From Nitrospirota bacterium (GTDB lineage Bacteria > Nitrospirota > UBA9217): a stretch of DNA of 64,000 nt. Position numbers and translations under genes: made by a program. The notes beneath the pieces are model-generated. The model saw only the letters and a list, made by a program, of their open reading frames with translations. It did no database searches and was not told where the DNA came from. The stretch covers positions 1,536,001 to 1,600,000 of the forward strand of contig CAVTRN010000002.1 in NCBI GenBank assembly GCA_963737155.1, given 5' to 3'. Shown here one piece after another: positions 5,121-10,117 of the stretch. Numbering within the stretch: position 1 is the first letter of the stretch; each line of letters opens with the position of its first letter.

Positions 5121-5291
5121 AACAATGTTCAGAAATAGGGTTGAGGTAAAAAATCAGCCTGGTGCCCGGCAAGGTCCACTGCAACGGAAGAAGGCAGGTC
5201 GCTGTGTGCGAGCTTGATTGAACCGCAATACGCTAACATCTTTCTTCCAATTGTGCAACCGCCTTGGCAATGCCACTATGGTCCCTTCAAG

Positions 5292-6782
5292 ATGCCGAAC
5301 TATCTTAATAACATGGTTGTACACAAGAAAAAAATTTTATTCATAACTACGGGCGTAATCACGCTTGTAGTCTTAGTGAGCGTCCTCGTTCTCCTGCTCA
5401 ATATGCAATGCTTCAAGCCGCAGATCGAGGCAGCTGCATCGAATGCTCTGGGAATGGATATCCGGATCAGGGGCAGGATGGGCATTGCTCTCTTCCCGGG
5501 TTTCGGTCTGTCGCTGAAGAACACCAGCGTGCAGAACGGGGAAGCGGATGTAGTTACCATTGAGAAGATGAGGATCGGTTTGAAGCTCATCCCCCTTATG
5601 AGGCACGAAATCCAGATAAGCCGGGTTGAGCTTATCAAGCCGGCCTTCTCCATCGTGCGGGACAAGAACGGGATGCTAAATTTTAAAAAAACAGGACGCA
5701 CGCTTTTGGGAAAGCCCCTCGCTGTGGAAAAGATATCCATCTCCCAGGGGAGACTTGTTTATACTAACGAAAGATCCGGCGAGAGGGTCGAAGTGGGCGA
5801 CTTCGATATGACCATACGAAACCTGTCGTACAACGGTACAAATAGCGTGGAACCAGCTAAGAACGGCTCATTCACCGGCGATATCAGCTGCAAGAAGCTC
5901 AAGATCAACAACATCACTATTACAAACCTGGTGATGAGAGCAACAGGGGAAAACGGAATACTCGATATCAACCAAGTCAGGATGGACATATTCGGCGGGA
6001 CCGGGAAGGGGAGCATTCATGTGGACGTGACGGGGGCATCGCCTTATTTCCGGGTAATCTATACTCTCAACCGGTTCAGGATCGAGGAACTAATGCAGGC
6101 ATCCCCGCCCGGGAAAATCCCAAAGAAAAGCATAGAAGGGACGGTCAACTTTTCCGCAAACCTGACGGCAACGGGGAAGAGCGCAGATGAAGTGAAGCGA
6201 TCGCTCAACGGCGACCTTTCTTTGAATGGGGAGAACCTTATGCTCAACGGCATCGATATCGATGCCCTTATCCCAAAGTACGAACGAAGCCAGAACTTCA
6301 ACCTCGTGGATGTAGGGGCGTTCTTCCTCGCCGGCCCCTTCGGCCCGGTACTCACCAAGAGCTACAATTTCGCAAGCCTGTACGAAGAGTCGCGAGGCGG
6401 AAAAGGGATCATCAGAAAACTTGTCTCACTCTGGAAAGTAAATCACGGTATTGCCGAGGCGAACGACGTGGCCCTTGCATCAAACAAACACAGGATCGCC
6501 ATGAAGGGTGGATTGAACTTCATCGACGACCGTTTTGTTGACGTAGTCGTAGCGGTTCTCGATAAAAGAGGGTGCGCTGTTTACAGCCAGAAGGTACACG
6601 GACCGTTCCGTAAACCGCAGATCGAGAAGGTAAGTGTCTTAAAATCAATATCGGGGTCCGTGTTGAACGCGCTGGGGGATGTGTGGAAATTAATTCAGGG
6701 TAAATCGTGCACACCATTTTACTCAGGTTCGGTGGCGCAACCGGAGGGGTTCTCAACTGGTCATGCTTTAATTGTATATTAG
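5292..6782 (+). CDS. AsmA family protein (last 10 residues contributed by an inserted element)
   Basis: N-terminal TM, KPQIEAAASNALGMDIRIRG, beta-rich repeats, GKSADEVKRSLNGDLSL. Start codon uncertain (5214, 5292 or 5313). Confidence 0.85.
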   Translation: MPNYLNNMVVHKKKILFITTGVITLVVLVSVLVLLLNMQCFKPQIEAAASNALGMDIRIRGRMGIALFPGFGLSLKNTSVQNGEADVVTIEKMRIGLKLIPLMRHEIQISRVELIKPAFSIVRDKNGMLNFKKTGRTLLGKPLAVEKISISQGRLVYTNERSGERVEVGDFDMTIRNLSYNGTNSVEPAKNGSFTGDISCKKLKINNITITNLVMRATGENGILDINQVRMDIFGGTGKGSIHVDVTGASPYFRVIYTLNRFRIEELMQASPPGKIPKKSIEGTVNFSANLTATGKSADEVKRSLNGDLSLNGENLMLNGIDIDALIPKYERSQNFNLVDVGAFFLAGPFGPVLTKSYNFASLYEESRGGKGIIRKLVSLWKVNHGIAEANDVALASNKHRIAMKGGLNFIDDRFVDVVVAVLDKRGCAVYSQKVHGPFRKPQIEKVSVLKSISGSVLNALGDVWKLIQGKSCTPFYSGSVAQPEGFSTGHALIVY

Positions 6783-6821
6783 CAACTTTTATGATATATT
6801 ATATTTAATGGAATATATAAA

Positions 6822-8377
6822 CCTCAATAATGCACGAAAAAGGATATCTTAGTCATAAAACCAGCATAAACATTGATCGACGAAGTACGAGTTACTTGCA
6901 AAATCGTTAAAATTAAACTAGCTTGAGCCTATCAATTTTCTTGAGGGCAGCCTCAAACTGCTCGCGGTAGTGGTAATCGTGTGGCAATGCCAGGACATTC
7001 CGGCTGCCTTCCTTGCTCAGCTTGGCTGGCAAAACAAGGAAATCGGTACGTATTGAATCCAGTGTGGCGTTCAAATACTCTTTCGGAAGACAGAGCCGCT
7101 TGAACCAATGCATGATGTCGAAGGCTAATAACAATAATTGGAAGAATGCTACATTCGCCAGCCAATCCTCCGTCGGTATTTTGCCAAGGGGATAATCGTA
7201 AAGCAGTTCTCGAATGTTCTTCTCGATAGTTGCCCGTTTGGCGTAGAACTGCCAGATTCGCCAGGGATGAGCTTTGATGTTCGTCACAATGACGTGATAG
7301 GCATACTTCCGATCTTTGAAAAGTGTCAGTTGCTTGGCTTCTATCGGATCGTCGGGGATGGGACGCCGTACCACGATAAAACGATGCAGATTTTTCCAGT
7401 GCAACGGTTTGTACTTGAACTCGCTCACTTCCCAACCAGTCCCCAGTGATTTGAATCTGCATGCCCTGGCTTGGGATTTGATGGTGGAATATTCTTTGGC
7501 TACAATCGCGTAACCTATGCCAAGGGCATCGAGAAATTCGATCACATTGTGGCCGAAGAACCCTGAATCGGCCCGTATACGGATTCTTGACCGCGAGATG
7601 TTTTTGGGTGCTTTGGCCAAGCAGCGCTTCATGAACGAGATCACACCTGAACTGGAAGCAGCATTCCCCGGTCGGAGTGATCCATGCCAGAATTCCTGAA
7701 GATGCGCTTCGAAACACAAAAGCGGATGATAAGAACGTCTGCCTCGCTTCTTGGGATTGTACCCGACACGGGCGAACTGTATTTTCCCATAGATTGTCAG
7801 CACCACGGAGTCCAGGTCGAAGATCAGCGATGTTCTCGGTTTGGGTAAAGGAAACAACATAAGCCGAAGCCGATCGTGGAGTGCAACAAGTTGCCGGATG
7901 TCTTTGGGCGTAAGTCGTTTGAGAAATCGACGGATCGTAGACTGATTCGGGAATTGTGGCAACCCTAAGAGCGAGAGAAACACTCCGTTGTATTGTAATA
8001 TCTCGGTCTTGTTGATTCGGCGAAGGCCAACCATGACCGCAAAGAGCAGGGCGAGGATGAGATCGGAAGGACGATAGCTGCCATTGCGGAGATTCACTGT
8101 CACCACTTGCTTTAATAGGCGGCGCAGTCCGAGTTTGTTGCAAAATCGTTGGAGTAGTACCATCCCGCCGAAGTGCGTTAGGTGAGTATCTTTGAACGAT
8201 AGACGCAGTGTTTGCAGGCCTTTTGACATTGTAAAACGCGAAATAAGGTGAGTAAATGGCTTCTTCCGGAAACCGTCCATTTTGGACGGATTCCGGTATA
8301 TAAAAATTATAACGTTCTATATGCATTTTTGCTGAATCTTTTGATATCGCATTCATGATTTTCATGCATTATTGAGG
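6822..8377 (-). mobile_element. IS1380-family insertion sequence
   Basis: 19-bp terminal inverted repeats CCTCAATAATGCA(C/T)GAAAA, with a 5-bp target duplication ATAAA at 6817-6821 and 8378-8382. Confidence 0.93.
6913..8280 (-). CDS. IS1380-family DDE transposase
   Basis: Motifs LTHFGG, IFDLDS, GYNPKKRG..YHPL, LRPGN, RIRADSGF, FYAKRATIEKNIRE. Confidence 0.93.
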   Translation of the reverse strand: MDGFRKKPFTHLISRFTMSKGLQTLRLSFKDTHLTHFGGMVLLQRFCNKLGLRRLLKQVVTVNLRNGSYRPSDLILALLFAVMVGLRRINKTEILQYNGVFLSLLGLPQFPNQSTIRRFLKRLTPKDIRQLVALHDRLRLMLFPLPKPRTSLIFDLDSVVLTIYGKIQFARVGYNPKKRGRRSYHPLLCFEAHLQEFWHGSLRPGNAASSSGVISFMKRCLAKAPKNISRSRIRIRADSGFFGHNVIEFLDALGIGYAIVAKEYSTIKSQARACRFKSLGTGWEVSEFKYKPLHWKNLHRFIVVRRPIPDDPIEAKQLTLFKDRKYAYHVIVTNIKAHPWRIWQFYAKRATIEKNIRELLYDYPLGKIPTEDWLANVAFFQLLLLAFDIMHWFKRLCLPKEYLNATLDSIRTDFLVLPAKLSKEGSRNVLALPHDYHYREQFEAALKKIDRLKLV

Positions 8378-8425
8378 ATAAATAAGGGTTACGCATCAGT
8401 AAACCAATAACTTGAGGCCGTAAAA

Positions 8426-10117
8426 ATGTCAAATGGGAAAAGAAGCAAAAATAAGAATGTTGGTGGAAAAGACACCCTGTCATTCACTGCAAATATGCTT
8501 CTGGATGATCATCCCTACCCGGAAATAAAGACCTCTCTTTACGCCATCCTCGACGATACGGGCATCTTGTATGGCCGTATAAAGAGGACTCTGTTCAAAG
8601 ACTGCATTCGCTCCGGCAAAAAAACAACAGAATTAAAGAACGAGTACCTGTCAACGTACAAGATCACCGCACGGCAGTTCAATGCAATCCGCTATGATCT
8701 GGACGGGAATGTCAAGGTGGTAACGGAAATCAACAAGCTCAGGACCCTGGATCTTGAAGAGAAAATAATATCGGTAAAAAAGTGGATTGCAAACAATGAA
8801 TCAGGAATACTCAAAATAACGGCTGATGCGGGTATCCCGAACACTGAAAAAAAGAACCAGGCAAGAGAGCTTCAGTATCGTGTTGATAATAAGAAACGAA
8901 AGCTTGCTTCTTTGGAGCAAAAGCTTTCCAAACTCAGGGAAGATCAGAAAAACGGGCGGGTAAGGATTTGTTTCGGGTCAAACAAGATATTCAGAAAACA
9001 ATTTTCCCTGGAGGAAAACGGGTACAAGAGCCACAATGAATGGCTTCTGGACTGGAAAGGGTCTCGCAATAACACCTTCTTTTGCCTTGGCTCGAAGGAC
9101 GAATCGGGCGGGAACCAAACGTGCACCCTGAAGTCCGATGGGACGATGAGATTAAGGGTCCCTGATTGTATAAAGGACAAATACGGGCATTCCATTATAA
9201 TGCCCAGCATAAAATATCCCTATGGCCAGGAACATATCGAAGCGGCCCTTCAGGCCGGAACAGCGATTTCTCACCGGTTTACCAGGGGCGGGAAGGGCTG
9301 GTACCTGCACACGACGGTAGATATTCCAAAGGCAAAAACAGTTACTTGCAAGCCAAAGGAAATCGGGTCTATCGGAGTGGACGTCAATGAAAAAGAAATT
9401 GCGGTTAGCGAGACCGACCGGTACGGGAATTATGTCAGGAGCATAACATATCCATCCTGCGTTAAGGATTTGCGCACTGAACAGACAGAAGCAATGTATA
9501 GCGATATCTGCAAATCCATCGTGGACCGGGCAGCCAAGACGGGAAAACCTATATCCCACGAAGAACTCGATTTTAGCAAGAAGAAAGCATCCTTAAAAGA
9601 GCAGGGCGTTACTTACGCAAGGATGCTTTCCGGTTTTGCCTACGGAACCTTCCTCACCCTGCTGGATAGAAGGGCGGCAAAACATGGCGTTTCCGTGCTC
9701 CCGGTCAACCCTGCTTTCACCACGATCATAGGGAAATTTAATTACGTGGACCGCTATGGCATTACGTCGCATGAAGCTGCGGCGCTGGCCATCGCGAGAC
9801 GTTCTCAACATTTCAGTGAAAGGCCTGATTCCGCCAGAATCGCGTCTCCCGTACCTGCAAGGAATCGGGGGGCGCATATCTGGAGCATTTGGAGAAGGCT
9901 GAAGACGAGACGGGCGGGCGGTAGCATTAGCCTGACCGGCTCAAGGCGGTCCTTACAGGACTCCTCAGGTTGCGCTGAACCACAAACGAAATTTACAGCA
10001 ACGACGACAGCGCAATCCATGCGGCCACCTCTTGCTACAATAAAGAGTGTACACCGCCGCATGGGATCCCAATTCATAAATCACGGGACTTGGGTGAATC
10101 AGAGGCATGCGCCCTGA
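8426..10117 (+). CDS. tnpB: large TnpB-related protein (IS200/IS605/IS607 accessory RNA-guided nuclease family)
   Basis: RuvC-I IGVDVN, RuvC-II ISHEELDF, VNPAFTT, HEAAALAIARR in the RuvC-III position, GSKDESGGNQ motif. No C-terminal CxxC zinc finger. Confidence 0.85.
   Translation: MSNGKRSKNKNVGGKDTLSFTANMLLDDHPYPEIKTSLYAILDDTGILYGRIKRTLFKDCIRSGKKTTELKNEYLSTYKITARQFNAIRYDLDGNVKVVTEINKLRTLDLEEKIISVKKWIANNESGILKITADAGIPNTEKKNQARELQYRVDNKKRKLASLEQKLSKLREDQKNGRVRICFGSNKIFRKQFSLEENGYKSHNEWLLDWKGSRNNTFFCLGSKDESGGNQTCTLKSDGTMRLRVPDCIKDKYGHSIIMPSIKYPYGQEHIEAALQAGTAISHRFTRGGKGWYLHTTVDIPKAKTVTCKPKEIGSIGVDVNEKEIAVSETDRYGNYVRSITYPSCVKDLRTEQTEAMYSDICKSIVDRAAKTGKPISHEELDFSKKKASLKEQGVTYARMLSGFAYGTFLTLLDRRAAKHGVSVLPVNPAFTTIIGKFNYVDRYGITSHEAAALAIARRSQHFSERPDSARIASPVPARNRGAHIWSIWRRLKTRRAGGSISLTGSRRSLQDSSGCAEPQTKFTATTTAQSMRPPLATIKSVHRRMGSQFINHGTWVNQRHAP

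Follow-up and report, generated by a model that had tools for sequence, protein, structure and literature searches.

A second reading frame running nearly the length of an IS1380-family insertion sequence is kept free of stop codons in one clade

Results

A stop-free frame overlaps the transposase gene

The window analysed here is a stretch of 64,000 nucleotides (nt) from the genome of a Nitrospirota bacterium (GTDB lineage UBA9217; GenBank assembly GCA_963737155.1, contig CAVTRN010000002.1, positions 1,536,001 to 1,600,000). It contains a complete insertion sequence (IS) of the IS1380 family, whose features are collected in Table 1. Besides its transposase gene, the element carries on the same strand a second open reading frame (ORF) of 470 codons in the −1 frame of the transposase ORF; each codon of this alternative frame consists of the third base of one transposase codon and the first two bases of the next. 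A first-pass annotation, made from the sequence alone, had pointed out this ORF and its start in the left inverted repeat (IRL), 85 nt upstream of the ATG of the longest transposase ORF (position 8280), and we found its coordinates and start exactly as claimed. The alternative ATG (8365–8363) occupies IS positions 13–15.

The transposase matches PF13701 (DDE_Tnp_1_4; E = 2.8e-56, 191 bits, cut-off 34.7) and the NCBIfam model of the IS1380 transposase, NF033539 (274.7 bits, cut-off 180). Its identity to any plasmid-borne member is at most 30%. We place the conserved start at the ATG at position 8229 (IS position 149), since this ATG is invariant in relatives and since stops occur in the transposase phase upstream of it. 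This codon is M18 of the longest ORF and gives a protein of 438 amino acids; the alternative ATG lies 136 nt upstream of it.

We reshuffled the synonymous codons of the window transposase 20,000 times. None of the 441 codons of overlap is a stop in the alternative frame, against 18.9 ± 3.2 stops in the shuffled sequences (minimum 8). The longest open −1 run, which spans all 441 codons, compares with an average of 78 in the shuffles and was never approached by them (none exceeded 230), in line with the earlier judgement that a chance origin is very unlikely, for which this kind of shuffling had been proposed as the check. That judgement had been based on about 80 stop-prone contexts without a stop; the absence of stops stands, and the count itself is 97 transposase codons that begin with AA, AG or GA. 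Only three of these follow a T-ending codon, all three beyond the stop of the alternative frame. The other frames of the window gene are ordinary: 21 stops in the +1 frame against 21.7 expected, and 18–24 stops in each of the three antisense frames. The host genome has 1,054 ORFs of 400 codons or more; the transposase gene shows the lowest density of −1-frame stops among them, and just one other has an open −1 run of at least 400 codons. That ORF, of 1,027 codons, begins MLKSRDFIAF, has a lipoprotein-like N-terminus and contains a run of 448 codons.

Table 1. Features of the IS1380-family element and its flanks (positions in the window; IS positions count from the left end of the element)
Feature	Position	Strand	Remarks
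Complete IS1380-family insertion sequence	6822-8377	minus	1556 bp; terminal repeats and 5-bp duplication
Left inverted repeat (IRL)	8359-8377	minus	19 nt, CCTCAATAATGCATGAAAA; family consensus CCTCAAtAAtGCGtgaaaat
Right inverted repeat (IRR)	6822-6840	minus	19 nt; ends in TGAGG
Target-site duplication ATAAA	6817-6821 and 8378-8382		direct repeat read from sequence
Transposase gene, longest ORF	6913-8280	minus	455 amino acids; PF13701 and NF033539
Alternative ORF	6953-8365	minus	470 codons; ATG start; −1 frame of transposase ORF 6913-8280
−10-like box	8306-8313	minus	GTTATAAT; family consensus GCTATAAT; IS positions 65-72; conserved in 26 aligned left ends
Conserved stem-loop	8264-8298	minus	IS positions 80-114; between −10-like box and transposase start, inside alternative ORF
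Outward −35-like hexamer TTGAGG	6822-6827	minus	end of IRR
AsmA-family gene	5214-6782	plus	convergent neighbour of the element
563-amino-acid ORF	8426-10117	plus	divergent neighbour; starts 48 nt from left end of the element

Stop codons are purged from the frame in relatives

If the frame matters to the element, it should be open in relatives as well. We collected 29 relatives from species-representative genomes and 80 from metagenomes (the best 80 of 444 confirmed matches), from which 104 near-full, single-segment copies were retained, the window copy included, with transposase identities of 57–85%. An alignment of relatives had been suggested by the first-pass annotation as a check for a conserved open frame, and the frame does stay open: 87 of the 104 copies have at most one −1-frame stop (none in 74, one in 13), eight have two to four, and nine have five or more. 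Taken together, these copies contain 163 such stops, whereas 1,728 are expected from synonymous shuffles of each sequence, and z is −3 or lower in 91 of them. The +1 frame carries 1,247 stops over the same 104 copies and fits the shuffle expectation in all 28 rows for which it was computed. We then clustered the complete elements at 90% nucleotide identity, which gave 60 clusters, 47 of them with an intact transposase and an open frame. In these 47 non-redundant open elements there are 16 stops, against 764 expected.

We considered whether the open frame could be a functionless by-product of base composition, codon usage, codon-pair bias or common ancestry. GC-rich relatives do expect few stops in any case (5–6 at a G+C content of third codon positions, GC3, of 0.86), and Tyr, Trp and Cys codons are also mildly scarce in the alternative frame, with ratios of 0.70–0.87. 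However, the AT-richer members (GC3 0.44–0.55) are open too, with 0–2 stops where 20–27 are expected; in one of them (L098, GC3 0.47) there is none against 25.9. At codon boundaries of the open set, depletion is limited to the three stop triplets and reaches 10- to 30-fold: observed-to-expected ratios are 0.03 for TAA, 0.05 for TAG and 0.10 for TGA, as against 0.80–1.10 for TAC, TAT, TGG, TGC and TGT. Since the TAY and TGN triplets are near expectation, the depletion is not a TpA or TpG effect. The same specificity is seen at conserved fourfold-degenerate sites, where T is used in 0.2% of cases before AA, AG or GA, that is, where it would create a stop, and in 18.8% where it is harmless. Nor can the open frame simply have been inherited, because synonymous sites are near saturation for most pairs, with an excess of identical codons of only 0.04–0.10. 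The +1 and antisense frames of the window are not depleted, the gene is the extreme of its genome, and sister lineages of similar composition, other IS1380 subfamilies and ISEcp1 lack the open frame (see below). The shuffles, the trinucleotide context test and the genome-wide control thus refute the by-product explanation, the likelihood of which we regard as negligible. We conclude that purifying selection keeps the −1 frame free of stops in one IS1380 clade. The frame is neither a shadow nor a chance ORF, as had been suspected from the window copy; stops are specifically purged from it in about 100 relatives.

A codon-aligned antisense frame is also open in some relatives, with 0–1 stops in seven of them (L016, L027, L006, L012, L013, L018 and L023), two of which have a GC content of about 50%; the count in the window is 19. 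Probably this is an ordinary shadow frame, arising where TTA, CTA and TCA codons are few.

The open frame is confined to one clade and has been lost repeatedly

We asked how far the open frame extends within the IS1380 family. At 20 other PF13701 loci of the same phylum, −1-frame stops are scattered and at or near expectation, and strong depletion is found only in the clade of the window element (L120–L124). ISEcp1 has 46 stops in its −1 frame, where 49 are expected. The 20 loci and ISEcp1 rule out the open frame as a general property of the family. One subgroup, from another IS1380 subfamily in the same phylum (L132–L137), has 6–9 stops against 14–19 expected (z about −3), scattered along the gene; this mild deficit could come from a codon-pair effect, or the subgroup could hold the same trait in decayed or partial form.

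In a tree that includes these outgroups, the open-frame elements form one clade of 60 rows with a Shimodaira–Hasegawa-like approximate likelihood ratio test (SH-aLRT) value of 96. Closed frames are nested within this clade at least four times, in each case with an intact transposase: in Verrucomicrobia (L018, L021 and L022), in L011 with L095, in L002, and in L050 with L068. Sister lineages that have the same protein and a similar composition carry 10–23 stops. The tree indicates that the open frame is a derived and long-lived trait, and a dispensable one. Neither this restriction to one clade nor the repeated losses, nor the span from repeat to repeat described next, formed part of the first-pass annotation.

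The frame runs from repeat to repeat

The protection from stops is not limited to the transposase gene. From IS position 81 up to the start of the transposase, one of 991 alternative-phase codons is a stop, compared with 73 and 19 stops in the other two phases, and over IS positions 46–80 it is one of 517. Even in the hypervariable stretch at IS positions 17–43, the alternative phase is stop-free in all 26 clusters of the 1556-bp class, compared with 19 and 17 stops in the other phases. Left of the transposase start, this class has no alternative-phase stops except a TAA in the repeat at position 7 (22 of 26) and single stops at positions 4 and 49. In the window copy the TAA at IS positions 7–9 is followed in phase by the ATG at 13–15. 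Elements of a 1530-bp class show like protection but in another phase relative to the left repeat.

At the other end, the frame closes at the TGA inside the right inverted repeat (IRR), within the terminal TGAGG and 2 nt from the end of the element, in 26 of the 47 open elements, and beyond the IRR in two. The remainder stop 22–382 nt before the end, apart from one outlier (L087) that stops 1,253 nt before it. The window frame is among the shortened ones, stopping 131 nt before the element end, and its closest relatives stop 82 nt before it. Where the frame reaches the right repeat it is about 500–520 codons long, and over the 47 open elements the stop-to-stop frame covers a median of 98.6% of the element. 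In the right spacer, 15 of 919 alternative-phase codons are stops, against 33 and 29 in the other phases. We also considered indels of multiples of three in the right spacer as a signature of coding, and rejected this: most spacers have a length of 1 modulo 3, but distinct lengths are equally often 0 modulo 3.

On one Planctomycetales contig (L027:837-3743) the element lies inside a host ORF. Element and duplication together measure 1,533 bp, a multiple of three, and the alternative frame and that of the host form one uninterrupted frame of 968 codons, giving a product of 967 amino acids (P0011); the transposase frame of this copy carries a stop. Because both repeats close the frame in most elements, we treat this fusion as an accident of one decaying copy.

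The span of the frame also bears on programmed frameshifting. The two frames stand in the −1 relation that is characteristic of IS3- and IS1-type elements, and two-ORF insertion sequences that use frameshifting have been described (PMC3281130), so that hybrid or truncated isoforms might be made from the transposase and −1 frames, as in IS3, IS1 and IS5/IS427. However, no slippery heptamer of the form X XXY YYZ is conserved; the best site is common to 6 of 47 elements, and none lies in the window. A shift product could be made from a short open stretch, with no need for 500 codons, and frameshifting leaves unexplained why the alternative frame is protected for a further 100–140 nt or so upstream of the transposase start, where the transposase phase is full of stops. 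The lack of a conserved heptamer and the upstream protection largely refute this explanation, which we consider very improbable.

Selection acts on the continuity of the frame

We next compared the alternative products themselves. They are about 500 residues long, with isoelectric points (pI) consistently between 9.5 and 11.9, and are rich in R, S, P, Q and G. The window product, with a pI of 9.5, is R/S/P/Q-rich and predicted to be unfolded, as had been guessed from its sequence. AlphaFold2, run on a 43-sequence alignment, returned a predicted local distance difference test (pLDDT) score of 38.8, a predicted template modelling (pTM) score of 0.13 and no secondary structure, and the product has no match in Pfam or NCBIfam. 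A profile search of predicted proteins retrieved 507 representative clusters, 190 of them at E ≤ 1e-30, and the six that were checked are nameless; that a word-indexed protein search found only one relative is an artefact of its sensitivity.

These properties could point to an overprinted gene, whose very basic, disordered protein of about 500 residues would act by bulk properties such as length, charge, nucleic-acid binding or condensation; the product might be an accessory or regulator of transposition, its sequence free to drift. De novo overprinted viral proteins are typically disordered (PMC3494269, PMC6195259). Such a protein would account for the purging of stops over some 500 codons in about 100 relatives, for the consistently high pI and the compositional bias, for the tolerance of C-terminal truncations, which many proteins share, and for the prediction of the frame as a protein by gene callers.

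Sequence comparisons fit this explanation less well. Between relatives with 58–79% transposase identity, the alternative products are 27–37% identical. This exceeds by only 2–6 percentage points a null in which transposase protein, codon usage and stop-free frame are all retained (z = 0.8–4.1), an excess that, in pairs of open elements with z up to 4.1, would favour selection on the product; compared with closed-frame relatives of similar divergence, z is about 1. At ten stop-prone fourfold sites, C is preferred over G and A, which favours Gln and Arg over Glu and Lys. The composition, however, is nearly all explained by the transposase frame plus stop avoidance, departing from the no-stop null by ratios of 0.70–1.18 only. 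Reduced synonymous variation had been proposed as a further check by the first-pass annotation: stop avoidance is evident, whereas the third base at safe fourfold sites is conserved in 0 of 47 cases. No codon periodicity of variation was detected in the stretches outside the transposase gene, where the frame is on its own. The first in-phase ATG in relatives falls at IS position 6, 9, 13, 19, 22, 34 or later, without a conserved start or ribosome-binding site, and the length classes differ in the phase that the frame takes relative to the left repeat, so that the N-termini are not homologous. There is no fold and no family match. In addition, a diffusible product would complement defective copies and weaken selection on each copy. 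An overprinted gene for a disordered protein is quite possible on this evidence, with the odds somewhat against it.

What we found is a long frame that is conserved as open without a conserved product, the pattern that passage of ribosomes would leave; of the marks of an overprinted gene, the long conserved-open frame is present, and purifying selection on amino acids and a conserved start with an initiation signal are absent. These alignments indicate that what selection maintains is an uninterrupted frame; on the amino-acid sequence it acts weakly at most.

The element, its copies and its neighbours

The two terminal repeats are complementary at 18 of 19 positions. By blastn, the 4.8-Mb host genome contains one full copy of the element. 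Remnants of other insertions are a solo left end, identical to the first 66 nt of the element (C2:118159-118224), and a 168-nt fragment with 79% identity (C1:1590433-1590594). C2 also holds five copies of a different, distantly related element (for example 1021696-1022856), the transposases of which score about 67 bits on PF13701 and are 24% identical to that of the window. The 563-amino-acid ORF that lies divergent to the element has no Pfam match, and its score for TnpB (NF040570) is below threshold (41 bits, cut-off 100).

Two features lie between the left repeat and the transposase start. The −10-like box is a putative transposase promoter, which would place the promoter downstream of the alternative start; a promoter-consensus scan of the element did not list the box among its sites. 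In the stem-loop, 12 pairs were predicted by RNAalifold from 31 sequences, and compensatory double changes occur at 11 of these; it may form in the 5′ part of the transposase mRNA.

Discussion

Because only translation reads triplets in phase, ribosomes very probably traverse the alternative frame, and probably do so for some purpose. We favour the reading that the frame serves in cis as a lane through which ribosomes pass, the peptide being a by-product, and give this reading a rough probability of 0.45, a little short of even.

The protected span starts at about IS position 10–35, upstream of the −10-like box. Since it begins upstream of the putative promoter, the left end is the most likely point of entry for the transcripts concerned, which would be read in from flanking DNA or start at an outward promoter and cross a junction of right and left ends. 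Outward promoters are documented for the IS1380-family elements ISPme1 and ISEcp1 (PMC9330008). In the window, the TTGAGG at the end of the IRR forms a promoter-like site together with a flanking TATAAT (6798–6803), with 10 of 12 matches and a spacer of 18, which is a consensus match only; across joined right and left ends, inspection by eye found no convincing −35/−10 pair in the repeats. For ribosomes arriving on such transcripts, the IRL would shut two of the three phases, by TAA at positions 7–9 and TGA at 14–16, and would offer starts in the alternative phase beside or overlapping these stops (GTG or ATG at 13, ATG at 19, 22 or 34). Read-in ribosomes would then be carried over the transposase start and body in a frame other than that of the transposase, without terminating inside the gene. 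Transcription and translation would stay coupled, avoiding premature termination of the Rho type and polarity, as ribosomes translating nascent RNA shield it from Rho (PMC12360218). Initiation or re-initiation in the transposase frame would also be prevented. No intrinsic terminator was found inside the element. In its full form, in which the left repeat halts two phases and restarts one stop-free frame that runs to the TGA of the right repeat, such that incoming transcripts are translated straight through, we put the scheme forward tentatively and regard it as doubtful.

Several observations weigh against a passage for ribosomes. The constraint relaxes towards the 3′ end, about 19 of 47 frames being cut short by 20–380 nt; a protein whose C-terminus tolerates change would explain this no less well than transit does. 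The alternative start has no conserved position, and no Shine-Dalgarno sequence is visible in the left ends of relatives. The small excess of identity between products (z of 1–4) leaves room for weak selection on the product, as does a preference for C that goes beyond avoidance of T at the ten stop-prone fourfold sites. A promoter role of the −10-like box is argued from its conservation only. Flanking host ORFs are not co-oriented with the elements (upstream, 10 in the same and 11 in the opposite orientation; downstream, 9 and 11; 55 flanks each, by a crude longest-ORF test); this counts against the reading because a host-level benefit from relief of polarity would predict co-orientation, and the window's own upstream neighbour is divergent. 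Finally, the loss of the frame from at least four lineages with intact transposases shows that it can be dispensed with.

The first-pass annotation had offered two interpretations, an overprinted gene or a translation-based regulator of transposase expression. That the frame is selected has been borne out; the data do not decide the choice and lean away from a classical protein-coding gene, and a regulator that needs only to cross the transposase start would not require some 500 open codons.

In bacteria, long frames that overlap completely on the same strand and can be shown to be selected are very rare. The case for selection is unusually clean here: it combines about 100 diverged copies, a depletion specific to the three stop triplets, and internal controls in the form of sister lineages that have lost the frame. 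It points to selection on the reading of the frame, not on its product. If the passage of ribosomes along the frame is confirmed, it would constitute a new interface between transposon and host, one that insulates the transposase from outside expression, makes insertion non-polar, or both, and achieves this through dual coding alone, over the full length of a mobile element. It would also provide a tractable 1.5-kb system, in which silent stop mutations are easy to design, for asking how mobile elements handle invading host transcription and translation, and how far coding sequences are moulded by translation for its own sake. As a practical matter, gene callers sometimes choose the longer alternative frame over the transposase, as the 507 representative clusters attest.

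In its general build the element is a typical IS1380-family member: a size of about 1.5–1.7 kb, short terminal inverted repeats and a target duplication of 4–5 bp are all present. In comparison tables, IS1247 measures 1,672 bp with a 5-bp duplication, and ISArsp10 measures 1,667 bp with 15-bp repeats and a 5-bp duplication. The window element shares with IS1380, IS1247, ISPme1 and ISEcp1 the type of transposase, short repeats and a 5-bp duplication; the possible outward −35 element at its right end recalls the outward promoters of ISPme1 and ISEcp1. As far as the available descriptions of the family go, its members usually have a single ORF; the clade of the window departs from this by its second selected frame, which is no ground for excluding it from the family. 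The literature we searched, outside which lay ISfinder/TnPedia and most subscription journals, including that of the original IS1380 paper, yielded no published description of a second ORF in IS1380-family elements.

Other insertion sequences, namely IS3, IS1 and IS5/IS427, also have a second −1 frame on the same strand over the transposase coding sequence. In those elements the two frames share tens of bases at a slippery heptamer and jointly encode one fusion transposase, whereas in the window element they overlap fully, there is no conserved heptamer, and a single frame holds the complete transposase. Transcripts from outside are treated unlike the element's own in IS10 and IS50, where RNA secondary structure hides the ribosome-binding site of the transposase on read-in transcripts. 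The device at the outer end is thus shared, but IS10 and IS50 use no full-length second frame. The closest parallel to the mechanism proposed here may lie in the nested eta/kil frames of satellite phage P4, where, reportedly (Forti et al. 1999, J Bacteriol 181:5225), it is the translation of a long frame, and not its product, that prevents premature termination of transcription. By that account the mechanism is the same; the P4 frames, however, belong to a phage immunity region, are partly antisense to small genes and have no sequence link to the element. With viral overprinted genes, the alternative frame shares its position over an older gene, a basic, low-complexity product predicted to be disordered, and a restricted range, here a single clade. 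Viral overprinting normally reduces synonymous change in the older frame, whereas here only stop avoidance is seen, and the host of the frame is a bacterial insertion sequence, whose non-coding ends it covers as well. Both overprinting and translation for its own sake are known kinds of phenomenon; what is unusual here is that the frame spans a whole element and that its selective signal is so clear.

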